From an uncultured virus (IMG/VR IMGVR_UViG_3300039099_000002) (lineage: Duplodnaviria > Heunggongvirae > Uroviricota > Caudoviricetes), in the IMG/VR virus record IMGVR_UViG_3300039099_000002: 64,000 nt of DNA; one strand, written 5' to 3'. Below are positions 3,949 through 60,253 of this stretch, in pieces. The position numbers and the translations under genes were made by a program. Below the pieces are notes generated by a model. It worked only from the letters and a program-made list of their open reading frames with translations, did not search any database and was not told the origin of the DNA. Each line of letters opens with the position of its first letter. Position 1 is the stretch's first letter.

Positions 3949-4805
3949 ATATTACTGCGGACAACCAATAAAGTAAAGCGCATTTTTAATTTATTTTTGT
4001 ATTACAGACGTATTACAAGAATTTTAGACATAGGTGCGTACTTGCATAATTTTTTGATTTTAATCAAAAATAAAATTGGGAAGATGATCACTTTCTTATA
4101 GGAAAATGCCCTTTTTTCTTTGCATCTTCCCTTTACTTTTGACACACCTTATGTTATAATCCGCCACAGATTTTTTAACGAGAGAATGCGGGTTTGAGGC
4201 GTGTTACAAGATTTTGATTTTATCGGCGTTAGTCCAGGCTGGGAACGAATGCTTGGTTTATGGTTTTGGGGATGGCTGCGGGGAAATATTACCAAAACAC
4301 AAAACCCTTGCTGTGCGGGGATTACAATATGTTTTTTATCGCCAAGGGTGGACAGATTTTAGGTTTTTAGCTGGTGGCACGGGCGTTGTTAGGGCGTTGG
4401 TGCAAATGGTTGGTTTGCGGCTTGGGGGACGGCTGCGGGGAGCGATCGCTAAAAACACAAAACCCTTGCTGTGCGGATATTGCAATATGTTTTTTGTCGC
4501 CAAGGCTGGACAGATTTTAGGTTTTTAAGCCGGTGGCACGGGCGTTGTTAGGGCGTTGGTACAAATGTTTGGGTTGTGGGGGACGGCTGCGGGAAATATT
4601 ACCAAAAGCTGAAACCATTACTGTGCGGGGATTGCAATATGTTTTTACCACCAAAGTTGAGCAGATTTTAGGTTTTCTAGCCGATGACACGGGGCGTTGT
4701 TAGGGTGTTGGTGCAAATGTTTGGTTTATAGTTTTGGGTCGGCTGCGGGGGAAATATTACCAAAACACAAAACCCTTGCTGTGCGGGGATTACAATATGT
4801 TTTTC
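3949..4805 (+). repeat. Dispersed element copy A: outward promoter, conserved head and about 4 tandem 152-158 bp units
   Basis: Head near-identical to copies B-G. The unit marker caatatgtttt occurs at about 4325, 4483, 4635 and 4793. Confidence 0.95.
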
Positions 4806-10532: not shown

Positions 10533-10985
10533 ATAATACTATGGCTAACAAACAAAGTCAACCCTGCTTTCAAAATCATTTTTATATTACAAACGTATTA
10601 CAAGAATTTTAAATACAGGTGCGTGTTTGCATAATTTTTTGATTTTAATCGAAAATAAAGTTGGGAAGATGATCACTTTCTTATAGGAAACTGTCCTTTT
10701 TTCTTTGCATCTTCCCTTTACTTTTGACACGCCTTATGTTATACTCCGCCACAGATTTTTTAACGAGAGAATGCGGGTTTGAGGCGTGTTACAAGATTTT
10801 GATTTTGGCGACATTGGAAAAGGCTGGGTGCAAGTGTCTGTTTTGCCGGTTTGGAGACGGCTGCGGGGGAGCGATCGCCAAAGCTGCCAGCCTTACTGCG
10901 CGGGGATTGCAATATGTTTTTAGCAGTAAAACTGGGTATCCATTGGGCTTTCTGCCTATGGTGCGGGGCGTTGGCGAGGCGCAAA
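10533..10985 (+). repeat. Dispersed element copy B: promoter, head and about 1.5 units
   Basis: Same head as copy A; followed by an opposite-facing promoter-family copy at 11047-11075. Confidence 0.95.
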
Positions 10986-15324: not shown

Positions 15325-15867
15325 ATAATACTGTGGTTAACAAATAAAGTCAAGCGGTATTTGAAAATCATTTTGTATATTACAGGCGTATTACAGGTTT
15401 TTTATCTAGGTGCGTACTTGCATAATATTTTTATAAAAAAGGAAAAAATATTTGGGAAGATGTGCATTGTTTCTTTAAGGAAATGCCATTTTTATTTCAC
15501 ATCTTCCCTTGACTTTGGTACGCTCACTATGATATAATCCGCCCCAAATTTTTAACAGTAAAATAGGGGTTTGAGGCGTGTTACAAGATTTTAGTTTTAT
15601 GGGGCATTATCCAAAACTGGGAACGAATATCCGCTTTATGATTTTGGGAATGTCTCCCCGCAGCCGACCCAAAGACAGAAGCCTTGTTATGTGGGGATTA
15701 CAATATGTTTTTGTAACAAGACTGGGCATCCGTCGGGCTTTTTTGCCGATGGTGCTGGGCGTTGACGTGGTGTGAGTACAAATGCTCGTTTTATAATTTT
15801 GGTGCGGCTGCGGGGGAAATATCGCTAAAACACAAAAGCCTTGCTGTGGCTAGATTGCAATATGTTC
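15325..15867 (+). repeat. Dispersed element copy C (most diverged head) with 2 units; the core of unit 1 is inverted
   Basis: gggaagatgtg/cacatcttccc inverted repeat; ccccgcagccgaccc at 15656-15670 is the reverse complement of the usual core. Confidence 0.9.
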
Positions 15868-17126: not shown

Positions 17127-17744
17127 ATATTACTATGGTTAACAAATAAAGTCAAGCGCATTTTTGATTTATTTTTATATTACAAACGTATTACAGAAAT
17201 TTTGGATATAGGTGCGTACTTGCATAATTTTTTGATTTTAATCAAAAATAAAATTGGGAAGATGATCACTTTCTTATAGGAAACTGCCCTTTTTTCTTTG
17301 TATCTTCCCTTTACTTTTGACACACCTTATGTTATAATCCGCCACAGATTTTTTAACGAGAGAATGCGGGTTTGAGGCGTGTTACAAGATTTTGATTTTA
17401 TCGACGTTAGTCCAGGCTGAGAACGAATGTCTGTTTTGCCGGTTTGGAGACGGCTGCGGGGGAATATTGCCAAAACACAAAACCCTTGCTGTGCGGATAT
17501 TGCAATATGTTTTTTGTCGCCAAGGCTGGACAGATTTTAGGTTTTTAGCTGGTGGCACGGGCGTTGTCAGGGTGTTGGTGCAAATGGTTGGTTTATGACT
17601 TTGAGGACGGCTGCGGGGGAGCGATCGCTAAAAACACGAAACCCTTGCTGTGCGGGGATTACAATATGTTTTTGTCGCCAAGGGTGGCATCCGTCGGGCT
17701 TTTTTACCGATGGTGCTGGGCGTTGACGTGGTGTGAGTACAAAT
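17127..17744 (+). repeat. Dispersed element copy D: promoter, head and about 2.5 units, ending at GTACAAAT
   Basis: Head near-identical to copy A; abuts a partial promoter motif at 17745-17770. Confidence 0.95.
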
Positions 17745-19705: not shown

Positions 19706-19761
19706 TTTTTTGTGTTTTTTTTGTGTTTGTTTTTATTCTTGTTTTCTACAACAACTGTAAC

Positions 19762-26254: not shown

Positions 26255-26466
26255 AGGCTAAACCAAAAGTGCCAAGGTTATGTTGTATAACCCTGGCACT
26301 AAAAAAACACAAAAAACACAAATACAGCAAAACAAACTTACTGACATCTGGCTTTAATTAACTATATCAATAATCCACCAAGAAAGCTATAACCACAGCA
26401 GGATTTTTAGATATAAAATTGTGCGTTTGCACGATAAACACAAAAACCAAAACACAAACAAAAACA

Positions 26467-28439: not shown

Positions 28440-28791
28440 ACTGATAGAGTTCGCAACATTAATGCGATATTGTTTTAGTCAATAATAATAATAGCATATA
28501 TATCAAGTTAATATCGGTAATCGCTGAAGCCCGCCTATAAAACAATTTCAAAAAATTACTTTGTAATCATTGTATTACATTGACTATTTTGCCCAAAAGT
28601 GTGGTTTAATAGAATTGTTATATAAAATAAACATGAATATGGTTTTATACAGCAGAACATTCAAAGCAAAAACACAAAAAAAAGAAACAAACATGAAAAG
28701 CACAACTACACACCATCAGTAAATCTCATCACCATTATTAAATCTTGCTAAACACTACAAAAAACACAAAGCACAAAAAAAGTAGAAAAAT

Positions 28792-31700: not shown

Positions 31701-32973
31701 AAGCACTTTTGAAGAGATTCACTCAACATTATGCTCCGATTTAATTTTAAAAATTAAATATGAGAAAAGTGAACCTCGCGGGTGCTTGTTAAACATTCTA
31801 AAAAGCTCTGGACATAAAATTTTAGAGGTAGCACTTTTAGAGTCCAAGCAAGCTACAGAACTCAATAAAGAGGCTTCTGATAATTTCAAAAAAGAAGAAT
31901 CCGCAAATATAGCACAAGCAGAGGTGCTAGACTCCAAACAATATGATCTGGAATCGGCAAAAATAAATATATCAAGCGCGACAAGATACAATCTTGAGAA
32001 AACTGGCATCAACTTCATAGTTCCAGGTATTACAGACAAATCTATATGGGATGCAGATTTTGTCTATCACGTAAAATATGGCGACAGGGCATTTTTAAGA
32101 GGGCAAAATAGATTCTACCTCTTCAACAACCAAGATGCCTTGATGAAGTATGAATTGAATAGACATAAAAACAACGTTTCCTATGCAATATTTAGCAACA
32201 AATACGAAAGCGTGACATTTGATGTAAACAATCAATATACACAAATCAGGCTCTTACAGGAAAGCAACATCTCTTGGTTTTTAAATCCAGATAACAATTG
32301 GTATGTAAAAAATGAATGGTTTGATGATTTTAATGGCACAAAATTTATTAATAAAAGCAATGACCCAGTAGCACAAAAAGTATTTGATTTCTTGATATTT
32401 TTCAACAAAAATTTAGAAATTTTTGGTAAGCAATTCCCAATCAAGAAAACAGCAAAATCAAAAAACCCCGCATCGGCAGCCACAAAACAAATCATAAAAA
32501 TTATTCAATGGCTGGGGCTAAAAGTCAAATCCAAGAAATCAAGCGGATTTAAATACTCGATTGATCTGCAATCTTTCAGCCCATATCACCAAGCTTGCCA
32601 AGATTGCCTCAAGGTCAAGTATAGCGATATCAAAGTACAAACAATACCCGACACAATTATTGAGAAGGGAGCGACGGTGTTCAACCTAGAGGTTGAACCC
32701 GCAAAAGAGCCGGACAAAGACTACAAATACACTTATCCATACGAGGTATTTAAGGCTTTAGAGGTGGTATGGCAAGATCAATACAGCATTTACGCCATAC
32801 TCCAACAATCAATGCCAGCGGTAGTTTCTGCACTAGTTTCCATACCCAACAGCTTCTACGGCACGACATCAGCGAACTATCTGAAAGATATCATTACCTG
32901 GGGTAACAAAAATCTAGCGAAGCCTGACGAGAAAGTGACGATAATAGAGAACGAAAAAGTCCCAATTGCTTAA
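28792..32973 (+). CDS. Primase-helicase replication initiator resembling cyanobacterial plasmid CyRepA1 proteins
   Basis: N-terminal CPIC Zn finger; TOPRIM-like LAEGVLKP...YADAG...WWGQ...DIDEL; helicase SGLGTGKT, IIVDE, PTAEAGIDI and QMIARLR. Confidence 0.8.
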   Translation: MGNFTSIGKNCPICNGRKKRCSTLSDSLSQVIQYHCRENIELPNYKNLGLSSIGFYMYSPIDIDGEQNQYKNTEEYIPTISQEERQKAREVAEKEAFLAEEYHKNRISQQLSPKQRHIEYAKMLKSMSISDIHKGHLNGTRGFLHEQIEINGYRSVGKFEAVDPSISPKTPGIFVNYLGETVINYGGRGILLPVRDLDQNIVAFQIRNTETQKDKNKSGEDFGKYLWSGYPQTLKTGAENKRLFYPSIHLPENGEKPLHIANPHNLKDVEMLYLAEGVLKPDIAAYRFEQAIVGSPGGSWYSSPEQLFAAINYFNTRNVVLYADAGAIINSNVITIYNRVRQLLENEGIDFKIAWWGQIAKTESKFLQSGPQFSDIDELDGFHPGFGHSKPDFEKIQYLTWDQWIDLAYSEEIIAKRPKKDFKTNFVKESEARESLQELIDGVNGTKNKAKWWENYKNLTQRKKPIFAAEKPDNIELPVFDQSIIDDFAFGSEFEEDRNFTPRQDDESESSCHEEQKGKNTAENNAVNFDISDKKKFNTWKRRIEYTPTHEFNDPYVSIDRKIEANSIYTINSGLGTGKTWWALEMLKEMDAPFLYVTFRNSLCEQFIEQCKKRGIECSHGNESGFKYQNDTQVFQGMAFCIDSLHKVSLPNLDGKIIIVDESFSTIQEMMTKKSLEKGRVRLLEFFKESLKKCAAAIFMDGHLTDSLADYVHQLAPEKKIIKYKNNFQGRKFDITFVNGSYDDIASDYYTQEEINAGTSENGEKIKIKVRDRSPVLNAINNSIGNICIATDSLNQSMSLNQRLKDQGRFGLVVNSISYRENWLLCAADPESSVQNFIKDVDGFIEKYKLEYLIYTPTAEAGIDISIHKRIPNYFTHQYCLFFNVIGTFGQSQMIARLRDPECPRTVWLYPHPMGTDYEYTGCSTKEYRNIFLTQQKAYLIQMRKDAELQGTPINEVQMLVEASKKVVETSTFEEIHSTLCSDLILKIKYEKSEPRGCLLNILKSSGHKILEVALLESKQATELNKEASDNFKKEESANIAQAEVLDSKQYDLESAKINISSATRYNLEKTGINFIVPGITDKSIWDADFVYHVKYGDRAFLRGQNRFYLFNNQDALMKYELNRHKNNVSYAIFSNKYESVTFDVNNQYTQIRLLQESNISWFLNPDNNWYVKNEWFDDFNGTKFINKSNDPVAQKVFDFLIFFNKNLEIFGKQFPIKKTAKSKNPASAATKQIIKIIQWLGLKVKSKKSSGFKYSIDLQSFSPYHQACQDCLKVKYSDIKVQTIPDTIIEKGATVFNLEVEPAKEPDKDYKYTYPYEVFKALEVVWQDQYSIYAILQQSMPAVVSALVSIPNSFYGTTSANYLKDIITWGNKNLAKPDEKVTIIENEKVPIA

Positions 32974-33165
32974 GCGGTTGATATTGATCAACCGCTGGCA
33001 AAACTAACCAAAATAGACACAGATTTAACGTCTGTGTCTATTTTGGTGGGAATTTTTGGCAGAATTATAGCAAAAACCTCGATTTTTTCATTTTGTGTGC
33101 TTGTTTAGGCACAAGCAAAAGCAATGTAATACATTTGTAGTTTTAGACTAGTCGCACATAAGAGG

Positions 33166-33297
33166 CTGAAACCCCTATTCTCTCGTTAAAAAATCTGTGG
33201 CGGATTATAACATAAGGCGTGTCAAAAGTAAAGGGAAGATGCAAAGAAAAAAGGGCAGTTTCCTATAAGAAAGTGATCATCTTCCCAACTTTATTTT
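33166..33297 (-). repeat. Dispersed element copy E: head only, reverse orientation, about 200 bp after the rep gene
   Basis: Reverse complement of gggaagatgatcactttcttataggaaactgcc...ttataatccgccacagattttttaacgagagaat. Confidence 0.92.
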
Positions 33298-33515
33298 ATT
33301 TTTTTGATAAATAGCTGTCGCCAATCATGTAGTACAAAACCATCGTTCCGTGAAGCTATCGCCCCAGTTTTGGGGTGTGTGAGGCGATCGCCCCCAAGTT
33401 GGGTAAACTATAAAGCCGTCAAATTATGCGCCAACGACGAGCGAACACCCCGACACAACTTTTTGACAATATGTAAAACAATGCTATACTGTTAGAGACA
33501 AAAGAAAATAGTATT

Positions 33516-33881
33516 ATGCAGAAAATTAAGACAATACCGTTATCAGAAATCAGGAATAGTCTGCCTAAATTCAGAAGACAGGTTCAACTTGGCAACATTA
33601 TCATCTTGCCTACTTTCTACGGGGATGTTGTGGGAGTATTTGTAAATTTGTCGTCCGCCGAAAATCTATCTATTAAGACTTCGACACAATTGTCAATAGG
33701 CGAGTTTCGGACTAATATTACCCAGTGCTGGGAAAGGCTGCAAGCTGAACTTGATTGCTTCTACCTAACAAGCCATTTGCGAATGGTGATGGCCTTTGTC
33801 TCGCCAAAGTACATCTCAGATTTAAGAATAGATTTGCCAATAAATATACTGGATTGTGGATTGTCAGTAACTCAGCCCTAA
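33516..33881 (+). CDS. Hypothetical protein with two Phd/YefM-like repeats; the last codons derive from the transposon end
   Basis: IPLSEIRNSL and LSIGEFRTNI repeats. Confidence 0.55.
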   Translation: MQKIKTIPLSEIRNSLPKFRRQVQLGNIIILPTFYGDVVGVFVNLSSAENLSIKTSTQLSIGEFRTNITQCWERLQAELDCFYLTSHLRMVMAFVSPKYISDLRIDLPINILDCGLSVTQP

Positions 33882-33946
33882 AGGGACTGAGCTTGTAAGA
33901 AATTCCAGGCTGTACTGTCCAAATTATGATTTCGTCAACTACTACG
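33863..33946 (+). mobile_element. Left end / 5' part of an IscB-IsrB omega (HEARO-like) RNA
   Basis: GTCAGTAACTCAGCCCTAAAGGGACTGAGCTTG...CAGGC..TACTGTCCA...CTACG architecture. Confidence 0.7.
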
Positions 33947-34233
33947 CCTCCCTATTGTAGAGGTTGTGTTCACTTGACTTCAATAATGAGCAAAATTTAA
34001 AGTTATGCTCATTATTGAAGCTTTATGCCATTTCCGCTATCCCAATTTGTGAAGATGACGGTTCATGCAAACTTGTTGAAGATTGAAATAATTATTAATC
34101 TATAGTTAAAATTAACTACTCTCTTTACAGATATGTAGAGAAATATGAGCGCAGTTGATGAAATAAAAGCTTGACTTTATTATCAACTTTGAGTTAATAT
34201 TGTGAAAGACAGAAAACACAAAAAACACAAAAA

Positions 34234-34944
34234 ATGACAACAACAAATCAAGACAAGTCCAAAATTGTAGCAAGAATTAAAAAGTTACTAAAGCTTTCGC
34301 AGTCTTCAAATGAAAATGAGGCTCTTCGCGCAGCTTTAAAAGCCCAAGAACTTTTAGTTTTTCATAACATATCGCTTTCTGATATTGACAACGAAGATAA
34401 TAATGTAATTGAACATAAAGTTGAGGCATTTGGGAATATCCCAATGTGGAAGAAAGCACTGCTGTTTGCGATCGCGTCATCAAATTTTTGTGTACCAATC
34501 GTTAAATCTTTGGGTGAAAAAAGAAAGTGTGTTTTTTTTGTTGGTAAACCAGCAAACTCTATTATTAGTGAAATACTGTATTCGTATCTAAGAAATGAAA
34601 TAGAGAGGCTTGCTAGACTTTTGGTAGACAAATCTCATACATACAAAACAAATTTCATGCTTGGGTGTGCAATTAGAGTATCTCAACGATTACAAGAAGA
34701 ATTAAAACAACAAGAAGAAAACGGTATACACTCTGGCACCGACTGTGTCTCTGCAATTGTAGTATCTTCGTTGCACAAAAAAAATACTGCTGAGATTGAG
34801 GTTTATTTAGAAAGTAAAAAAGTAAAAAAAGGCAGGAAAAACAAACCACAAATAAAAGATACTGCTTCCGCGATCGCATACAGAGACGGGTTTGATGCTG
34901 GTGATAAAATAAATTTAAATAAGCAGATAAAAGGAGCGGAATAA
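34234..34944 (+). CDS. DUF2786-domain protein
   Basis: IVARIKKLLKLSQSSNENEALRAALKAQELL. Confidence 0.85.
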   Translation: MTTTNQDKSKIVARIKKLLKLSQSSNENEALRAALKAQELLVFHNISLSDIDNEDNNVIEHKVEAFGNIPMWKKALLFAIASSNFCVPIVKSLGEKRKCVFFVGKPANSIISEILYSYLRNEIERLARLLVDKSHTYKTNFMLGCAIRVSQRLQEELKQQEENGIHSGTDCVSAIVVSSLHKKNTAEIEVYLESKKVKKGRKNKPQIKDTASAIAYRDGFDAGDKINLNKQIKGAE

Positions 34945-35048
34945 TGATGGAGAAAATATACAAGAATTAGCTAAAGCCAGAGAATTTTTTAATTGCTTCC
35001 TCGCTGCAAGATAGTCTTAGTTTTCTGTATCTTGGTGATTTTCAAGAA

Positions 35049-35315
35049 TTGGGATTTGGCGATGAATTTGTTGATAATCGGTGTATTTCAGTCTGTATTG
35101 AGTCTGATCTATTTGTCTACAACATAGATTTTGACAAATATAACTATGACAATGATGGCGAGAACAGCATTACTAGCGATGAAGCGGACGCTTTAGCAGA
35201 AAAGGAGCTTGATAATATTTGCGATGCGGTAATAAATATTATCACAAGAATTATTAATGAGCATCATAAAAATAATCCGGCAAAATTTGTGCAGATATGC
35301 CTAGCTGTTATATAA
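35049..35315 (+). CDS. Hypothetical protein or remnant
   Basis: Acidic ORF with a TTG start. Confidence 0.4.
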   Translation: MGFGDEFVDNRCISVCIESDLFVYNIDFDKYNYDNDGENSITSDEADALAEKELDNICDAVINIITRIINEHHKNNPAKFVQICLAVI

Positions 35316-35624
35316 TAGTGTTTTGCAGTCATTTCTTTAGGTGGCACACCCATCGTGCCACCTATTTTTAATTAACATTGTGATATGGGCAGTCGCTGGT
35401 CAGAAAAATAAATTCAAATATTTGAGGACAATATCGGCTTTCTTCCTCTTGAAAAAATAGTTTTAGCCCCTAAAAAAGTGGGTTCACAAGAACAAGAGAG
35501 ATTGAGCCGATTTTCCTCTTAGATTATTTTTCACCCAACAGACTAAGCAAGTTCCAAACATCTATTAAAAAAGTTTTTACATCTTTTAAAATTGCAAAAA
35601 CAATAAAATGCTTGGAAGTTTCCG

Positions 35625-35861
35625 CTACTTTCCCAAGACTTCAACCACAAGCCATTTACGATCAAAGCTATCAATAACTTTTTTCGCGTCCACTTTCATA
35701 CCCTGTAGTCTGCAAACTACCTCTAATCTATCTGTAAGGCGGATATGTTTGTTGCTATAAAAATCTGCTTTAGGTAAGTGAATGAATGTTTTTTCTAGTC
35801 CGCTTTTTAATTGAGAGATAGTTTCCTTAATTAAAATTGTTTGGTCTTCGATGTTTGACAT
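35625..35861 (-). CDS. Hypothetical protein
   Basis: ORF with AC-rich leader. Confidence 0.6.
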   Translation of the reverse strand: MSNIEDQTILIKETISQLKSGLEKTFIHLPKADFYSNKHIRLTDRLEVVCRLQGMKVDAKKVIDSFDRKWLVVEVLGK

Positions 35862-35956
35862 AATTGTGTTTTTTGGTTTTTATTATTTTATAACAAAAGT
35901 GGAACTATGTACACTAATTTTATGATATTATTAATTGATAATTATTAACAACATCT

Positions 35957-36880
35957 ATGAACAATCGAAAAATTGACAATTCCAAAATAAAGGTTTTAAA
36001 TCTTTTTCAATATCAAGGACGCTCAAAAAGCCCACTAAGATATCCTGGTGGAAAGCAGAGGGTTATCAAGTACCTAAAAGAGTGTTTCCCCAAGGAGTAT
36101 AAAGAATATCGTGAGCCGTTTTTAGGTGGTGGTTCTGTATTTCTTGAGGTGAAATCACAGCAAAAATGTGACAAATTTTGGGTAAACGATTTAAACAAAG
36201 AGGTTTATTTTTTTTGGCAACAGGTTCAATCAAATCTCTCTGCACTTGTTGATCGGGTCGCCAGCATTAAAAAAGAATCACACAATAGAGATGGGCGATC
36301 GCTTTGGATAGATTTGGTGTATTCTAATCCCCAAAAAAGCGGATTCATTGATATCGAGAAATTGACACCACTGGAACGCGCTGCTAGATTTTTTGTTTTA
36401 AATAGGACTACTTTTAGTGGAACAATAGAGTGTGGCGGATATTCTCAATATGCATTTGACAAAAGATTCACGGACTCGTCCGTCGAGCGATTAGCGCAGA
36501 TGTCTGGGACTTTTAATGAAGCGCAGATTACCTGTGTTGATTATAGCGAAATGCTTTTAGATGGTGGCAGCGATGTGTTTACATTTTTAGATCCGCCATA
36601 CCACAAAAACAAAAATAGCCGTCTTTACGGGCGTAAGGGCGGATTACTACATTTATTATTTAATCACGCCTTACTGGCGGAGAATTTGAAAAAATGTCAA
36701 CATCAGTGGCTTCTTACTTGTGACGACTGCAAAACTATTAGAGACTTATTTAGTTTTGCGAATATAAAAGAATTTGAGATCCGCTACTCAATTAATAATG
36801 TGGACAAGCAATTTATAACCCCAAACAGAGAGCTTTTAATTTCAAACTACGATTTCACTTGTATGTATTTAATGTCATAA
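35957..36880 (+). CDS. Dam-family (D12 class) DNA adenine methyltransferase, orphan
   Basis: SPLRYPGGK, EPFLGGGSV, NDLN and FLDPPY motifs. Confidence 0.92.
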   Translation: MNNRKIDNSKIKVLNLFQYQGRSKSPLRYPGGKQRVIKYLKECFPKEYKEYREPFLGGGSVFLEVKSQQKCDKFWVNDLNKEVYFFWQQVQSNLSALVDRVASIKKESHNRDGRSLWIDLVYSNPQKSGFIDIEKLTPLERAARFFVLNRTTFSGTIECGGYSQYAFDKRFTDSSVERLAQMSGTFNEAQITCVDYSEMLLDGGSDVFTFLDPPYHKNKNSRLYGRKGGLLHLLFNHALLAENLKKCQHQWLLTCDDCKTIRDLFSFANIKEFEIRYSINNVDKQFITPNRELLISNYDFTCMYLMS

Positions 36881-36918
36881 AAAACAGCGATCGCGTAGCA
36901 CTGTGCGATCGCTGTTTT
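36881..36918. terminator. Bidirectional terminator hairpin built from two HIP1 sites
   Basis: aaaacagcgatcgc...gcgatcgctgtttt. Confidence 0.7.
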
Positions 36919-37066
36919 GTTTACAGGTCAAAATTTTAAAAATAGATCGGTAATATAAGTCCTAGCTAGTCTCACCTTGTGACGAGGGGCGATTATCGAG
37001 TGGGTTTCCGATTTCGTGTTTGCGTTCCATCCTCCCTTGGGGATTGAACCCAACCTCTAGAACTTA
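36881..37066 (-). ncRNA. Candidate ~185-nt ncRNA containing a tRNA-like T-arm
   Basis: Promoter TTGACA-N17-TATTAT (37101-37073); TTGGG-TTCAATC-CCCAA at 37053-37037; terminator at 36881-36918; only a 22-codon ORF. Confidence 0.4.
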
Positions 37067-37197
37067 ATATCTATAATACTGCGGCACACTATATTTGTCA
37101 ATTATTAAATTATTTTTATTAAATAATCGCTTGACTTTTTTTGTTAACCATAGTATTATAGACATATAAACAAAAACACAAAAAACACAAAAATACA

Positions 37198-37674
37198 ATG
37201 ACCACTACAACAACAGTAAAAACCAAAAAAGCGGTAGTAAGAATTGGCGGAGCGATTGAAAAGACATTTAATGAAGCGTACGAAGCGGCTTGGTTTGCGA
37301 GATTTTTGATTACAAACGGCACGAAAAGAGAAAACATAAAAGTTAGTTGGGAATACGCAACAACGCCCCAAAAGGCAATAACAAATGGGCTAAACGTTAC
37401 CCAAGACGTTGATGGCAGAGAAATATATAAAACCCTGCTCAGAGCGTTCGCTGATTATTACGTCCAAATTGATTTGACAGACCTAGATCACAAAAATATT
37501 TGGTATAAAGAGTACGACTTGAAAACCAACGAGCGCATCGGCTTTGAAAGCCTCAGAACTGCAACAGAGCTAAATCCAGGCGAAGGTAGACCAACTAATT
37601 CACACAGAGCGATAATGTCTCAGGCAAAATGGGATATATACGAATCAGTGGGCAAAATGCTGGCGAATATCTAA
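37198..37674 (+). CDS. Hypothetical protein
   Basis: Follows promoter 37131-37159 and an AC-rich leader. Confidence 0.75.
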   Translation: MTTTTTVKTKKAVVRIGGAIEKTFNEAYEAAWFARFLITNGTKRENIKVSWEYATTPQKAITNGLNVTQDVDGREIYKTLLRAFADYYVQIDLTDLDHKNIWYKEYDLKTNERIGFESLRTATELNPGEGRPTNSHRAIMSQAKWDIYESVGKMLANI

Positions 37675-37865
37675 ATATCAATTAGCAGGGAATACAAATA
37701 AAAATTTTCCCTACCAATAAAAACAATCTATGAAATATTTACACGACAACGCTGAAGACCTGTTCTCTATAGCGATCGCCGCAATCAATGGGCAGATAGA
37801 CGAATCCTTTATTCCGCTGTTTATTCGCATTACAATTTCGTTGTTTTAGATAAGGGAAAACCAAA

Positions 37866-37912
37866 ATATTAACTTAATATTGCTTGACAAAATATCAATA
37901 TTGAGTTAATAT
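37866..37912 (+). promoter_or_regulatory. Promoter TTGACA-N17-TAATAT with paired palindromic operators
   Basis: Boxes at 37866 and 37898. Confidence 0.7.
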
Positions 37913-37950
37913 AGTTATATAAACAAAAAAACGCAAAAACAAAAAAACGT

Positions 37951-38469
37951 ATGACACACACAAAGAAAATGATTAATTACAGACCCGCTGGTACAAACCT
38001 TTTCCTAGAAAAAACTGAGTCAATTGTAAACGCTGTAAATTGTCAGGGCATATCTGGTTCAGGCATAGCATATTTTGTTTCCATCAAGTTTCCCAAAGAA
38101 ACCAAAGTTTACGAAAGAATGTGCGCCGATAAGGCGATCGCGCCTGGGATTGTCGGTGTAATACCCGCGAAACCAACCGCAGGAAACCCAAACATCAAAT
38201 ACATTTTCGCGCTCCCCACAATCGGCACATTTCAAGAATTCAATAAGCTAGATTACGCAGGGAAATTGAACCTTGTAAAAATTGGCTTAGAGGATTTGAG
38301 ACGGGTGTTGCTAACCATGCCCGAATTAAAATCAATATCTATCCCTGCCCTTGGGTGCGGTGTAGCTGGGCTAAAATGGGGCGATGTGAAACCTATTATC
38401 GAGGAGTTTTTGAGCGATGTACCACAAGATGTATTTGTAATTGAACCCCGCGACAAGGGCAAGGAATAA
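37951..38469 (+). CDS. Macrodomain protein (DarG-like ADP-ribose hydrolase)
   Basis: IVNAVNCQGISGSGIA...FP; SISIPALGCGVAGLKW..VKPII. Confidence 0.88.
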   Translation: MTHTKKMINYRPAGTNLFLEKTESIVNAVNCQGISGSGIAYFVSIKFPKETKVYERMCADKAIAPGIVGVIPAKPTAGNPNIKYIFALPTIGTFQEFNKLDYAGKLNLVKIGLEDLRRVLLTMPELKSISIPALGCGVAGLKWGDVKPIIEEFLSDVPQDVFVIEPRDKGKE

Positions 38470-38563
38470 GAAACAGGTCTAATTATCAATGCGGTTAAAA
38501 CCGCGCGTGTCGTTTCCCTCTCGGCACTAAAGTGACTGAGTTTCACACTTACCAGGAGTTCTT
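38470..38563 (+). mobile_element. 3' remnant and right end of an IscB/IsrB-type element
   Basis: Coding-like remnant TGLIINAVKTARVVSLSALK*; hairpin ctcggcactaaagtgactgag mirrors the left-end hairpin; followed by ATGA. Confidence 0.65.
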
Positions 38564-39457
38564 ATGAAAACAATCATATCTCATCAAGACAATTTAAGCT
38601 TTTTAATTAACGCTGCCAAAAAAAATAGAATTGCGTCTGCATATCTATTCACCGGGCGCAAAGGTGTTGGTAAATTTACAGTTGCCAAATCTTTCGCCAA
38701 CACCCTAACAAAAAATCCAATGGCGGACATACATATTGTTGCTCCAACATACACAGAAGATGGTGAAATTTTAACTATTGAAGAGGCTTTTGAAAAAGGA
38801 TTAAATAAAAGAACAAAACCAGTTATTAGAATTGAGCAAATAAGGGATCTGGACGGTTTTATCTCTCGCAGACCTTTGGGCATCAGCAATAATTATGGTT
38901 TCCCATCCAAAAATATTGTCATAATTGATGACTGCCAAGAACTAAAGGAAGATAGCATGAACGCATTGCTTAAAAACCTAGAAGAGCCAGGCGCACACAC
39001 GGTTTTTATCCTCGTTGCTTCTGGCAAGGTTTCTGACACAATATCCTCAAGATGCCAAGTTTTAAATTTCAGCAGACTTTCAAAAGAAAATTTGCTGGAA
39101 ATTGCAAAAATTAATTTTTTAGACATCAATGATAATATTTTGAACATTTGTGACGGCAGTTATGGTGACGCGATCGCCATTAAAGCCGTACTAGAGGAAG
39201 TGCCGGAACAAATTATTTGTTCCGCTTCAACAATACCAACAAAAGTTATTGATTGCTTACAAATTGCAAGAGACATTTCTGCGCTTTCTAGTAGTCAACA
39301 AATCGTGCTAATGGAGTACGCGGTTAGCATGATTTGGATGACTTATTTCAACATGGGGTTTGTCACTATTTTTAACGACTCAATTAATAAGCTAAAAAGC
39401 GGAATGCAGTCGCGCTTAACTTTGGAGGCACTTTACCTAAGCCTATTGAATACATAA
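38564..39457 (+). CDS. holB: DNA polymerase III delta-prime subunit (clamp loader)
   Basis: AYLFTGRKGVGK, IRIEQIR, IIDD, NALLKNLEEP and TISSRCQ motifs. Confidence 0.88.
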   Translation: MKTIISHQDNLSFLINAAKKNRIASAYLFTGRKGVGKFTVAKSFANTLTKNPMADIHIVAPTYTEDGEILTIEEAFEKGLNKRTKPVIRIEQIRDLDGFISRRPLGISNNYGFPSKNIVIIDDCQELKEDSMNALLKNLEEPGAHTVFILVASGKVSDTISSRCQVLNFSRLSKENLLEIAKINFLDINDNILNICDGSYGDAIAIKAVLEEVPEQIICSASTIPTKVIDCLQIARDISALSSSQQIVLMEYAVSMIWMTYFNMGFVTIFNDSINKLKSGMQSRLTLEALYLSLLNT

Positions 39458-39461
39458 GAAT

Positions 39462-39656
39462 ATGGAGAATACTGAGACGACAGAAATATGCCTTATAATT
39501 TCTGATGTTGTGACACCAGAAAATGCAAATAACAAAATTTTAGAACACTTAGCGCAAAGTCCCAAGAGGATATTGGTAAGACCTGTTGACGAAAATAGGG
39601 TTGTTGTCACCGCAGAATACACACAAACACTTCAAGAAATAATTGAGTATTTTTAA
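39462..39656 (+). CDS. Small hypothetical protein
   Basis: Fills the gap between holB and holA. Confidence 0.55.
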   Translation: MENTETTEICLIISDVVTPENANNKILEHLAQSPKRILVRPVDENRVVVTAEYTQTLQEIIEYF

Positions 39657-45618: not shown

Positions 45619-47076
45619 TCAGAAATCATTATTCATTACACAATACAAAATGTTGTCGCATGCAAACGAAGATATAATATCAACGCCATCAATCGTAAAT
45701 TCTGGAACTAATTTATTTGCAAACTTAAAAACACTTGGATCTAGTGTTAAGTTTCTGTCAAAACTATCTGAAAAAAACATAAAAATATAGCTCGCGCCTT
45801 GTACAAAATTTGTGCAAGTCAAGAAAGCATTAGAAAGATTTAAATTCACAATAAAGATATTGTTTTTGCCTAAATTTATGGACGTATTCGCTACTAGAGT
45901 GACGTTTACAATTGAAAATGGCGCAGAATTTAAAACTCCCAATACGTTTATTGTAAAATCATTACCGACAATGACACCACCAAGTGTTGATGTTGTGGCA
46001 ATTGGTATGTCTAAATTAATATTGTCCTGGATATAATTTATGTCAACGGCAGTTAAGCCAGTGGCATCAACATCAAGCCCGTCGCCGACAATGATACCAC
46101 CAAGTGCTGATGTTGTGGCAATTGGTATGTCTAAATTAATATTGTCCTGGATATAATTTATGTCAACGGCAGTTAAGCCAGTGGCATCAACATCAAGCCC
46201 GTCGCCGACAATGATACCACCAAGTGCTGATGTTGTGGCAATTGGTATGTCTAAATTAATATTGTCCTGGATATAATTTATGTCAACGGCAGTTAAGCCA
46301 GTGGCATCAACATCAAGCCCGTCGCCGACAATGACACCACCAAGTGTTGATGTTGTGGCAGGAACTAGGCCTCCACCTCCGTTGAATATTAAGTCAACGG
46401 GTATCCATTTTGAGCGATCGCTTGGTAATATGCCAACAATTCCATCATCTCTGCACACATAGCGGAAACCATTGTAAAGAACGGTATTTCCGACTCTGTA
46501 TAGCTGAGTCCCGCTATAGTTTGATGTTGGAATTACTATTTCTAACATTGTCGCTAAAAATGCGGGATCTTTTTTAAGAATGTCTGCCACTTGCTTTGCC
46601 GTTTGAGGAGTTCTATCGTTCCAAAATCCAGTTTTTTCTAGGTCTGCAAAATCAACAGAATTCTTGTTGGGTATGGCAGCATAAAAAACCGGTTCTACCT
46701 CTACCTCTTCTGTATTGGTTTTCTTGTTTAAATGTATACTTTCATTTGTCCAAACATATCCAACATAATATTCGTTTTCGTGAAGAATATACGGCAACTC
46801 GCCATCGTAACCATAGAAGTCACCATTGTCATAGTAAAAAGAGTTCGTGGTTGCTTTCTGAAAAATAGAAAAACTGTAAACCTGTTTTCTAGTTTCGGAT
46901 TCAGGAAGTTCTAGTGAAAATCTTCCATTTATAATTTCGGCATCAAACTGAAGGGGAAGTGAAACTTTTTTTGGAGACTGAACACCGGAAATTAGCGGCT
47001 GTAAAAGCTGAATTCTCAGAAAGCCGTTTATTGGATTTGACCCAGCATCTGCTATGTTTCCGCTTAAAAGTGTCAT
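45619..47076 (-). CDS. Tail-fibre-like protein with 40-aa internal repeats
   Basis: PIATTSALGGIIVGDGLDVDATG repeats; YRVGNTVLYNGFRY carbohydrate-binding-like motif. Confidence 0.7.
   Translation of the reverse strand: MTLLSGNIADAGSNPINGFLRIQLLQPLISGVQSPKKVSLPLQFDAEIINGRFSLELPESETRKQVYSFSIFQKATTNSFYYDNGDFYGYDGELPYILHENEYYVGYVWTNESIHLNKKTNTEEVEVEPVFYAAIPNKNSVDFADLEKTGFWNDRTPQTAKQVADILKKDPAFLATMLEIVIPTSNYSGTQLYRVGNTVLYNGFRYVCRDDGIVGILPSDRSKWIPVDLIFNGGGGLVPATTSTLGGVIVGDGLDVDATGLTAVDINYIQDNINLDIPIATTSALGGIIVGDGLDVDATGLTAVDINYIQDNINLDIPIATTSALGGIIVGDGLDVDATGLTAVDINYIQDNINLDIPIATTSTLGGVIVGNDFTINVLGVLNSAPFSIVNVTLVANTSINLGKNNIFIVNLNLSNAFLTCTNFVQGASYIFMFFSDSFDRNLTLDPSVFKFANKLVPEFTIDGVDIISSFACDNILYCVMNNDF
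45965..46360. repeat. 120-bp near-perfect tandem repeat, about 3.3 copies
   Basis: ccgacaatga...gtggca recurs at 45965, 46085, 46205 and 46325. Confidence 0.95.
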
Positions 47077-47482: not shown

Positions 47483-47821
47483 GTGTTACAGACGTATTAC
47501 AAGAGTTTTAAATACAGGCGTGTGTTTGCACAATATATTGATTTTAATCAAAAATAAAGTAAAGGGAAGATGATCACTTTCTTATAGGAAACTGCCCTTT
47601 TTTCTTTGTATCTTCCCTTTACTTTTGACACGCTTTATGTTATACTCCGCCACAGATTTTTCAACGAGAGAATGCGGGTTTGAGGCGTGTTACAAGATTC
47701 GTGTTTTGGCGGCATTGTGACAGGTTGGAAGCGAATGCCAGTTTTGTGGTTTTGGGGACGGCGTTGGGGAGAATGCAACTAAAACCGGAAACCTTGCTGT
47801 GCGGGGATTACAATATGTTTC
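47483..47821 (+). repeat. Dispersed element copy F: head and 1 unit, no left promoter; rightward promoter at 47894-47922
   Basis: Same head sequence as the other copies. Confidence 0.92.
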
Positions 47822-57279: not shown

Positions 57280-57740
57280 ATAATACTATGGCTAACACAT
57301 AAAGTCAAGCGCATTTTTAATTTATTTTCATATTACAGGCGTATTACAAGAATTTTGGATACAGGCGTGTGCTTGCACAATATATTGATCAAAATCAAAA
57401 ATAAAATTGGGAAGATGATCACTTTCTTATAGGAAACTGCCCTTTTTTCTTTGCATCTTCCCTTTACTTTTGGTACGCCTTATGTTATACTCCGCTTCAG
57501 TTTTTTCAACGAGAGAATGTGGGTTTGAGGCGTGTTACAAGATTGGGATTTTATCGGCGTTAGTCTAGGTTGTGGACAAATGTTTGTTTGGTGGTTTTGG
57601 GGACGGCTGCGGGGAGCGATCGCTAAAAACACAAAACCCTTGCTGTGCGGATATTGCAATATGTTTTTTGTCGCCAAGGTTGGGCAGACTTTAGATTTTT
57701 TAGCCGACGGTACGGGCGTTGACGGGATGCTGGTACAAAT
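57280..57740 (+). repeat. Dispersed element copy G: promoter, head and one 159-bp unit ending at GTACAAAT
   Basis: acaaat at 57576 and 57735. Confidence 0.95.
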
Positions 57741-58724: not shown

Positions 58725-59680
58725 CTAAACCATAGACTTTTTGACTAGCGTTTGTAAACTGACAGGAAGACTGAGGATATTTAAACTTAATTGTTGCCAA
58801 GAAGATTTAGTAAATTCAATATTTCTTTTACCAATTCTTTGACATACCCATTCTACACAAGCAGAAACAATTGCATTACCAAATATAAAGCATATTGATC
58901 GTAAATTCTCGCTATTCGACACCAATCATCAGGAAAACCCATCAATCTAGCATATTCAATATTAGTTAAACGCCGAAATTTATCACCTATTTGATAACGT
59001 TCATAATGTCTTGAGGTCGAAGCAGTTAATGTTGATGCAATTCCATTAACTCCAAATATTGTATAACCTAATCTTGCGCCTCCATCTTGATTATATAATA
59101 ATTCTACACCATGACAATAACGATGTACAGCTTTACTTTGCTTAATTCTTTCTAAGGTATCAGATGTAAAATCAAATTGAGTATCTACCATTAAATCATC
59201 TTGGAGAATATCTTTTAATTTTTGTCTAGGTTTGATATCCGGTAAGGTAGAAAGATTCAAAGTTAACATTTTATTTTTATAAGCAATTCCCCAATTGTAA
59301 TTCTTACCTTTATTTTCAACTATAGGCATCATATCTTTTTCTAGTAACTCTTCTATATTTTCTAAATCAGTTAAATCTGGTTAAGTTAAGAAAACTGATG
59401 TATTTTGTAAAAGTTGAGAATTTATATGCACTGAATTTAACTTAGTCCCAAAAATAAAAATCCTGTCTCTATTTTGAGGAATACCAAAGCTAATAGGACT
59501 AATAATTCTCCATTCTATAAAATAATCTAATTCTGACAGTGCATTTAAAATCACTCGAAAATGATAGCCATTTTCCATTGTTAAAAGTCTTTTGACATTT
59601 TCTAAGAAAAAATATTTCGGTTGTTTTTTATCTATTATTTCTACAATACGCTCAAATAAATTTCCTCTCACACAATCTCT
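58725..59680 (-). pseudogene. C5 cytosine methyltransferase (Dcm-type) pseudogene, 5'-truncated
   Basis: RGNLF, FLENVK, PQNRDRIFI, RRLT.IEYARLMGFPDDW and FGNAI motifs; stop at 59381-59383, frameshift near 58885; motifs I-IV missing. Confidence 0.88.
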
Positions 59681-59683
59681 CAC

Positions 59684-60253
59684 ACAAATGTTTGTTTGGT
59701 GGTTTTGGGGACGGCTGCGGGGAGCGATCGCTAAAAACACAAAACTCTTACTGTGCGGGGATTGCAATATGTTTTTTGTCGCCAAGGCTGGACAGATTTT
59801 AGGTTTTTAAGCTGGTAACACGGGCGTTGTTAGGGTGTTGGTGCAAATGTTTGGTTTATGACTTTGAGAGCGGCTGCGGGGGAAATATTACCAAAAGCTG
59901 AAACTCTTACTGTGCGGGGATTGCAATATGTTTTTTGTCGCCAAGGCTGGACAGATTTTAGGTTTTTAAGCTGGTAACACGGGCGTTGTTAGGGTGTTGG
60001 TGCAAATGTTTGGTTTATGACTTTGAGAGCGGCTGCGGGGGAAATATTACCAAAAGCTGAAACTCTTACTGTGCGGGGATTGCAATATGTTTTTTGTCGC
60101 CAAGGCTGGACAGATTTTAGGTTTTTAAGCCGGTGGCACGGGCGTTGTTAGGGTGCTGGGGCAAGTGTCTGTTTTGCGGTTTTGGGTCGGCTGTGGGGTA
60201 GCGATCGCAAAAACACAAAACCCTTGCTATATGGGGATTGCAATATGTTTTTG
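59684..60253 (+). repeat. Array block H, continuation of G: about 3.6 units with a 159-bp period
   Basis: aaactcttactgtgcgggg at 59742, 59901 and 60060; long identical stretches. Confidence 0.95.

Follow-up and report, generated by a model that had tools for sequence, protein, structure and literature searches.

Two relics of ISC transposons, probably left by independent insertions, bracket a gene island in an uncultured phage

Introduction

When two transposon ends bracket several kilobases of genes, do they represent one element with cargo or the remains of separate insertions? The question arises for positions 33863 to 38563 of a 64,000-nucleotide (nt) stretch of DNA, hereafter the window, from an uncultured virus of the class Caudoviricetes (IMG/VR record IMGVR_UViG_3300039099_000002). 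At this locus, the apparent left end of an IscB/IsrB-type element overlaps the end of a gene that starts at 33516, and an apparent right end directly precedes holB. An earlier note, made from the sequence alone, interpreted the locus as a single OMEGA element. The analysis described here leads to another reading: the window probably contains two independent decayed insertions of ISC elements at the target N/ATGA (the stroke marks the insertion point), with native phage DNA forming the island between them. Both ends can be assigned to the ISC group among the IS200/IS605 transposons, a group with this target that is common in filamentous cyanobacteria and cyanophages, and the relics are ordinary decayed copies of this known family rather than a new kind of system.

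The features at the two junctions are as follows:

33516..33881, + strand: gene for a protein of 121 amino acids (aa), no Pfam family (the 33516 gene)
33863..33921, + strand: E1, a 59-nt left-end relic of an IscB/mini-type ISC element, corresponding to the 5' part of the HEARO/omega RNA; GTCAGTAA terminus at 33863, hairpin at 33871-33891, small hairpin at 33892-33909, 3' strand of P1 at 33913-33919
33922..34124, + strand: 203 nt without homology to the element, with a hairpin with 21-bp arms at 33978-34020
38472..38563, + strand: E2, a 92-nt solo right end of an IsrB-type ISC element; 20 leftover IsrB codons and a stop at 38473-38535, hairpins at 38491-38504 and 38520-38540, AGGAG at 38554-38558
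38564..39457, + strand: holB, DNA polymerase III delta' (Pfam match), the ATGA of which is the N/ATGA target of E2

Identity of the two ends

A permissive cmscan search of positions 33300-38900 aligned the HEARO model (RF02033) at 33863-34026 from model position 1, where the earlier note had placed the start of an omega scaffold, scoring 25.3 bits (E 0.03) where the gathering score is 83; at gathering thresholds, no Rfam family matched anywhere in the 64-kb window. Thus, the start of the RNA is recovered and a full HEARO/omega scaffold is not. Positions 33863-33921 match the 5' ends of elements in 119 of the 121 loci obtained in a left-end pattern search, with up to 94.9% identity (E 7.6e-21); all 121 loci are cyanobacterial (Anabaena, Dolichospermum, Aphanizomenon, Nostoc, Microcoleus and others), and about 170 such stretches are estimated overall. 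The similarity ends at nt 59 in every one of the 119 loci and continues past that point in none, and therefore only a stub of the scaffold is left in the window. The 262 nt at 33863-34124, which fold somewhat better than shuffled sequences (z -3.2), were considered as a candidate omega RNA and rejected because the homology stops at nt 59. The terminus has the 5'-GT(CA) form, with GTCAGTAA at 33863 followed by the subterminal imperfect hairpin at 33871-33891, and the boundary between 33862 and 33863 is set by four unrelated upstream flanks that share the same start. An exact-pattern scan of IMG/VR with the left-end hairpin returned 21 stretches, and viral relatives of full length that share the GTCAGTAA-hairpin start reach HEARO scores of 153 (locus L019), 149.5 (L011), 129.7 (L016) and 101.8 bits (L005), the score of L017 being 43.9 bits.

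The right end is identifiable over its full length, with 90% identity to the IsrB-type right ends of L017 and L018 and 87-88% identity to those of L239, L207 and L173. Positions 38473-38535 are translated in frame into TGLIINAVKTARVVSLSALK followed by a stop, which matches the C-terminus of the L017 IsrB, and the terminus, with its subterminal hairpins, lies directly 5' of the ATGA at 38564-38567, the start of holB. Among 17 right ends aligned from viral contigs and named phages, ATGA is present at, or no more than 4 nt from, the extrapolated right end in 13, GTGA in one and neither in three. The case for the right-end hairpins rests on covariation because thermodynamic folds of both ends as single-stranded DNA (ssDNA) are not distinctive (z-scores -1.1 and -1.2): 97.4% of the cells are paired compared to 84.9% in shuffles, with 6 of the 13 pairs changed on both sides, in a set of 38 of the 56 distinct right ends from which 18 were dropped by eye, mostly for hairpin indels, a selection that favours structure.

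Direct similarity to cyanobacterial and viral element ends thus bears out the scaffold start and the right-end hairpin with a coding remnant followed by ATGA that the earlier note had described, and its assignment of both to the IscB/IsrB type, which is part of the IS200/IS605 superfamily, agrees with the full-length relatives, which have the same ends and carry IsrB or IscB open reading frames (ORFs) and HEARO RNAs. The role of ATGA as target-adjacent motif (TAM), which that note had named, and as target is also upheld, by the count of right ends given above and by published work: cyanobacterial ISC elements are described as having a 5'-GTCA terminus and inserting at N/ATGA, verified by empty sites (Kapitonov et al. 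2016, PMC4810608), and the TAM reported for DtIsrB is NTGA, with ATGA being cleaved (Hirano et al. 2022, PMC9581776).

The window does not encode IscB or IsrB (RRXRR/RuvC with or without HNH): only the 20 C-terminal codons are left, no RRXRR, HNH or Y1 transposase domain was detected among the 57 window ORFs scanned, and no match to IsrB was found in the 138-kb contig of a sister phage (83% complete). A functional OMEGA system would need a nuclease and the matching omega RNA within one element or genome, and the window has none. RNA-guided retention would have applied to the two elements while their nucleases were intact. Neither relic can act alone, the window being devoid of a nuclease, a complete omega RNA and a transposase.

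The two ends differ in subtype. Among the relatives with the same ends, the ORF of L017 contains RRXRR without HNH and accordingly is an IsrB, whereas those of L019 and L011 combine RRXRR with HNH and are IscB. For the E1 left end, similarity reaches nt 58-59 in 5 of 8 IscB-type elements and in many mini elements, but stops at nt 36-41 in all 6 IsrB-type elements; conversely, nt 1-14 of the window right end, where the IsrB coding remnant begins, can be aligned in no elements other than those of the IsrB type. By these alignments, E1 is of the IscB/mini type and E2 of the IsrB type. The search for relatives of both ends that the earlier note had proposed therefore yielded full-length elements, although of a different subtype for each end; the difference goes part of the way towards the different families that, according to that note, would speak against a single element.

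Alleles of the two sites in sister phages

The window was compared with two mutually near-identical sister phage contigs in IMG/VR, L003 and L004 (42 kb and 138 kb; 99-99.8% identity across most of the region and 99.8% in the flanks), and with Logan contigs from four runs of four studies (X5, X7, X13 and X14), placed on window positions 32900-39600.

At the holB site, one contig of X7 (depth 250.8) follows the 3' end of the macro-domain gene (macro) to 38471, continues with 14 other letters and then repeats 33863-33903 before it returns to window sequence at 38564; the window-type allele with the solo right end coexists in the same run (38428-38514, depth 398.9). In X13, a contig of 2,025 nt covers 36484-38471 and goes on with the same 14 letters and a variant left end. 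Furthermore, the cluster of holB products (20 members) includes 336-aa forms, namely P0001 and six more of the 15 members listed, on contigs of up to 168,672 nt; the first 38 residues of these forms, 34 of which are identical to the L017 IsrB by manual count, are fused directly to MKTIISHQ. Taken together, the X7 and X13 contigs and the 336-aa forms indicate that the right end at holB has a left end of its own and, therefore, that a complete IsrB element (E2) once sat between macro and holB. We infer that E2 inserted directly before the ATGA of holB and that its alleles then met different fates: one would have lost the right end, and the window allele would have been cut back to the 92-nt right end by a deletion that took the left end, the omega RNA and all but 20 codons of isrB, along with the 14 native nt upstream.

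For the 336-aa forms (P0001, P0046, P0048, P0049, P0053, P0055 and P0056), gene callers predict a 39-aa IsrB-derived extension of delta'. With the right end gone from this allele, what is left of the IsrB frame continues into holB in the same phase; the fusion protein is a prediction only.

At the 33516-gene site, L003 and L004 have the left-end hairpin after the 33516 gene, a copy of the right end within about 40 nt, and then ATGA and a 227-aa gene that is missing from the window; X5 and X14 show the same form of the site. In the sister genomes, the region of 33922-34124 is accordingly replaced by a joint 33891/34125 with 769 other letters, which include their own right-end copy and the 227-aa gene. 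Homologues of the 227-aa gene start with MTT (ATGAC...), and one of them (P0067, 85% identity) is on a single 1,531-nt Logan contig, as is P0065, a homologue of the 33516 gene; the two are probably on the same contig, which would represent an empty E1 site.

The 33516 gene itself retains a trace of the insertion. The E1 relic now encodes its last codons (L-SVTQP-stop), and uninserted homologues end in DCGL and a stop in three of four cases (P0040 and P0041, with 69-72% identity, and P0065, a close cluster member), with P0042 ending otherwise. Joining the flanks (33862 to 38564) gives GGA TT/A TGA, from which the earlier note had predicted precisely this stop at TGA; given that the homologues end as predicted, the left end must have inserted into a TTATGA stop/start overlap. 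The operon that the same note rebuilt with ATGA coupling holds as far as this native overlap is concerned, but the partner was probably the 227-aa gene rather than holB. Under this scenario, E1 would have inserted into the overlap that ends the 33516 gene, its downstream partner most likely being the 227-aa gene still carried by the sister phages, and a deletion in the window lineage would have left the first 59 nt of the element, a stub that now supplies the last codons and the stop of the 33516 gene. Transposition of both E1 and E2 would have proceeded as ssDNA, catalysed by a Y1 transposase of the host.

The L003 form of the site (L003 3276-3370) is a mini-element of about 100 nt. Its left-end hairpin is extended into a 16-bp palindrome without mismatches, which pairs with the opening bases of the right end next to it (z -6.75 for the DNA fold). 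This form looks like either palindrome homogenisation or a distinct insertion.

One insertion or two

The alternative put forward in the earlier note, a single IscB/IsrB element with ends at 33863 and 38563 that inserted between the 33516 gene and holB and had its interior, comprising the 3' part of the omega RNA and the nuclease gene, replaced by 4.6 kb of counter-defence cargo, draws on features that are real: the two ends share a strand and the N/ATGA ISC group, the left one coming before the right, and the joined flanks place the CGL-stop over the ATG, matching the native C-terminus of the 33516 gene. This junction, however, does not discriminate between the readings because any left flank combined with any right flank of the group restores N/ATGA; its tidiness follows from the target and is no evidence for one element. 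The sister alleles, by contrast, contradict a single insertion at both sites, with a separate left end directly after macro and IsrB codons fused to holB at one and, at the other, a 33863-type left end that is followed at once by a right end of its own. In X7, the window-type left end at 33863 is on a single contig with a depth of 629.7, equal to that of its flanks, yet about 40% of the depth at holB belongs to the allele with its own left end. Together with the mismatch between an IscB/mini-type left end and an IsrB-type right end, and with interior genes that use promoter-leader cassettes found throughout the phage (see below), these observations make the single cargo-bearing element very unlikely. 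The empty allele proposed as a check, GGATT joined to ATGAAAACA, was sought with a 17-nt word spanning the empty junction, and none of the 7 IMG/VR matches is related to this phage. Of the five joints listed in the four runs, none connects 33862 to 38564; this absence was not counted as evidence, since rare forms are lost from contigs.

Another possibility is that two separately arisen relics happen to form a same-strand pair that a host Y1 transposase (TnpA) could mobilise as a 4.7-kb cassette to other N/ATGA junctions. The left hairpin at 33871-33891 and both right-end hairpins are intact, a sister phage contains a remnant of a Y1 transposase beside a right end of the same family, and ISC elements are reported to be mobilised in trans by Y1 transposases (PMC4810608). 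Nevertheless, such a composite has at best an outside chance of being real: neither the joint nor the empty-junction word gave support (the contigs can miss rare forms), a 59-nt left end may be too little for the transposase, and the spans seen in cyanobacterial genomes are far shorter. In 47 cyanobacterial loci, the distance from left to right end is 321-466 nt (37 loci), 1,358-1,428 nt (5, IsrB) or 1,522-1,628 nt (5, IscB), so that all 47 are within 1.63 kb in a count of same-strand pairs that covered 2.5 kb of flank. If the composite did move, dead OMEGA elements would become a shuttle for phage counter-defence genes, here an island with a methyltransferase and a macrodomain.

The 37 elements of 321-466 nt (L177-L258) lack ORFs and consist of a left end, a spacer of RNA length and a right end; they outnumber the 10 protein-coding copies among the 47 pairs and may be omega-RNA-only elements.

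Several points weigh against two independent insertions. The two insertions do not account for the 203 nt at 33922-34124, and the in-frame TGA of the joined flanks fits the composite equally well. The 33516 gene and holB may once have been neighbours, an order that relatives with 65-79% identity (contigs of 120,546 and 129,019 nt) might preserve, and elements with several kilobases of cargo would be beyond the range of the span count. Searches for a full E2 allele or an empty E2 site found neither: the 14-letter E2 flank gave 77 matches in IMG/VR, and the flank extended for the empty and filled forms gave 48 in metagenome contigs, none of them related to this phage. That P0065 and P0067 share a contig is deduced from equal contig size alone. 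Finally, the L003 left end differs from that of the window at 5 of 6 boundary bases, including bases inside the 33516 gene, so that E1 in the window and in L003 may not stem from the same insertion event, with re-insertion or conversion in one lineage. With these points taken into account, separate partner ends in the sister alleles and the subtype mismatch still favour two insertions over one.

A possible role of the right end at holB

One tentative addition to the reading of two insertions, less likely true than not in our estimate, is that the solo right end was kept because it now serves holB. The AGGAG at 38554-38558, inside the E2 relic, lies 5 nt before the holB ATG, where it could act as the Shine-Dalgarno sequence after loss of the 14 native nt; in the sister alleles, these 14 letters, missing from the window, contain GAGGAAG directly before the ATG. 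E2 would thus have placed AGGAG where holB needs a ribosome-binding site, and its hairpins may additionally give the transcript stability or insulation. Solo right ends adjoin starts elsewhere too, namely those of a GTG-started ORF in L012/L044, the tape-measure gene of Nodularia phages and the 227-aa gene of L003, and many right-end termini have GAGG, AGGAG or AGGTG 5-8 nt before ATGA. On the other hand, many cyanobacterial right ends finish in T-runs without a Shine-Dalgarno-like motif, and the retention may be simple chance.

The solo right ends are not confined to this locus. The 138-kb sister contig contains four right-end-like copies, two at the E1/E2 locus, one at 126.1 kb and one at 70.2 kb; the copy at 126.1 kb (L012/L044) precedes the GTG-started ORF, which runs for 415 aa to the end of the locus without meeting a stop. 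In Nodularia phages, a solo right end lies directly before the tape-measure gene, with no HEARO match near it; in the DNA search of the named phages, this 92-nt right end was the only match, and nothing real was found for the left-end region. The Nodularia, 126.1-kb and L003 cases indicate that solo right ends abutting start codons are common.

The ORF at L044 1357-2601 starts with GTGA rather than ATGA and has a sub-threshold match to an ADP-ribosyltransferase family (E 0.0055, 16.5 bits, below the 23.4-bit cut-off). At about 70.2 kb (L043 1047-1316), the right end and ATGA directly follow a remnant of a Y1 (IS200-like) transposase, 58 aa from its C-terminal part (PF01797, E 3.7e-12), which adds a third kind to the relics of this phage.

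Genes between the relics

The 4.6 kb between the relics look like native accessory DNA of the phage and not transposon cargo. The features are:

34171..34944, + strand: promoter-leader cassette (34171-34233) and DUF2786/DUF7168 gene (34234-34944; Pfam), 91-92% identity to the sister phages
35049..35364, + strand: small ORF of 88 aa (140 aa in L003), with a terminator-like hairpin at 35338-35364
35396..35955, - strand: segment of about 560 nt missing from L003-type genomes (joint 35383/35956 in X5 and X14), with a 78-aa ORF at 35625-35861 (-)
35957..36880, + strand: D12-class N6-adenine DNA methyltransferase, Dam-like (PF02086, E 1.4e-38)
37131..37674, + strand: promoter-leader cassette and 158-aa gene (37198-37674), no assigned function
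37884..38469, + strand: promoter-leader cassette and macro-domain gene (37951-38469; PF01661, E 2.6e-09)

Three of these genes follow promoters of the form TTGAC(T/A)-N17-18-TA(A/T)TAT and an A/C-rich leader of the AACACAAAAAACACAAAA type (34171-34233, 37131-37197 and 37884-37950). The leader occurs 22 times in the window compared to 0.65 expected, and 19 of the 22 copies are outside this region, for example, before the primase-helicase gene; further examples of the cassette are at 26306-26323, 28754-28780 and 19708-19727 (-). Relative to L003 and L004, the island shows a swapped DUF2786 segment (91-92%), the 560-nt indel and presence or absence of the 227-aa gene, and therefore the pattern of a recombining accessory island. 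The gene content reported in the earlier note is confirmed, with DUF7168 in addition to DUF2786, a D12 methyltransferase, a macro domain and no nuclease, except for its candidate noncoding RNA, for which the permissive Rfam scan of 33300-38900 gave no RNA family match. The notion of one OMEGA element with an interior replaced by cargo is contradicted by the partner ends, the subtype mismatch and the phage-wide cassettes.

The phage and its relatives

The window appears to come from the genome of a large uncultured phage that infects filamentous cyanobacteria. It encodes a primase-helicase-like protein of 1,393 aa, the DNA polymerase III delta', delta and beta subunits, RecJ, several DNA methyltransferases and long tail-fibre-like ORFs; no tRNA or tmRNA was found in it. 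In the named phage collection, the 33516 gene has no relative and holB only distant ones; IMG/VR queries with holB and the 33516 gene, as single proteins and as alignments, recovered only the two near-identical contigs and one weak unrelated match; and a scan of metagenome contigs with the holB alignment returned no relatives.

Three other features of the window were noticed. An intergenic repeat of about 132 nt is present in 7 copies with 77-96% identity (4067-4198, 10652-10783, 15430-15575, 17245-17376, 33166-33297, 47550-47684 and 57383-57529), and the sister contig of 138 kb has further copies. A T-rich tail follows the GGGAAGATG...CATCTTCCC hairpin of the repeat, over which the contig depth is about 10 times that of the flanks. 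Within the 485-aa ORF at 45619-47076, positions 45962-46360 comprise copies offset by about 120 nt, and the sister contigs align to them in several registers; this pattern points to a structural gene with a variable tandem repeat. At 58853-59785 (-), adjacent ORFs of 159 and 134 aa match PF00145 (C-5 cytosine DNA methylase) consecutively, at profile positions 172-294 and 87-165, respectively, and look like a split or interrupted dcm-like gene.

Implications

The main value of this analysis is a correction: an apparent transposon with cargo is better explained as two unrelated relics. The locus further shows that ISC elements wedge exactly into the stop/start overlaps and start codons of compact phage operons, that they decay into different alleles which coexist in natural phage populations, and that their right ends can end up where a ribosome-binding site is needed. 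These patterns should be of use in the annotation of cyanophage genomes and in judging similar findings.

Comparison with known elements

The closest described counterpart is ISC1-1_MA of Microcystis aeruginosa NIES-843, which, as presented in PMC4810608, shares with the relics the 5'-GTCA terminus, subterminal imperfect hairpins at both ends, a cyanobacterial host, insertion immediately 5' of ATGA without target duplication, and the non-autonomous character of elements that encode only IscB or IsrB. The likeness is one of description, and the window differs in that it holds 59-nt and 92-nt relics of two insertions, with no ORF and no complete RNA, in a phage genome. With HEARO (RF02033), the stub shares the first helix, the two small hairpins and the return strand, in an alignment that begins at model position 1, whereas everything in the window after nt 59 is unrelated to any copy of the element found. 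With the IsrB nickase elements, represented by DtIsrB as characterised in PMC9581776, E2 has in common the last 20 codons of an HNH-less RRXRR protein and an ATGA compatible with the NTGA TAM; unlike those elements, the window has no isrB gene left, so that no activity is possible from this locus. PATE-like miniature derivatives of IS200/IS605 elements are matched by the mini-element of about 100 nt, left plus right end, at the E1 site of L003 and L004 and by the 37 of 47 pairs that span only 321-466 nt, whereas the window relics are 4.7 kb apart and of different subtypes.

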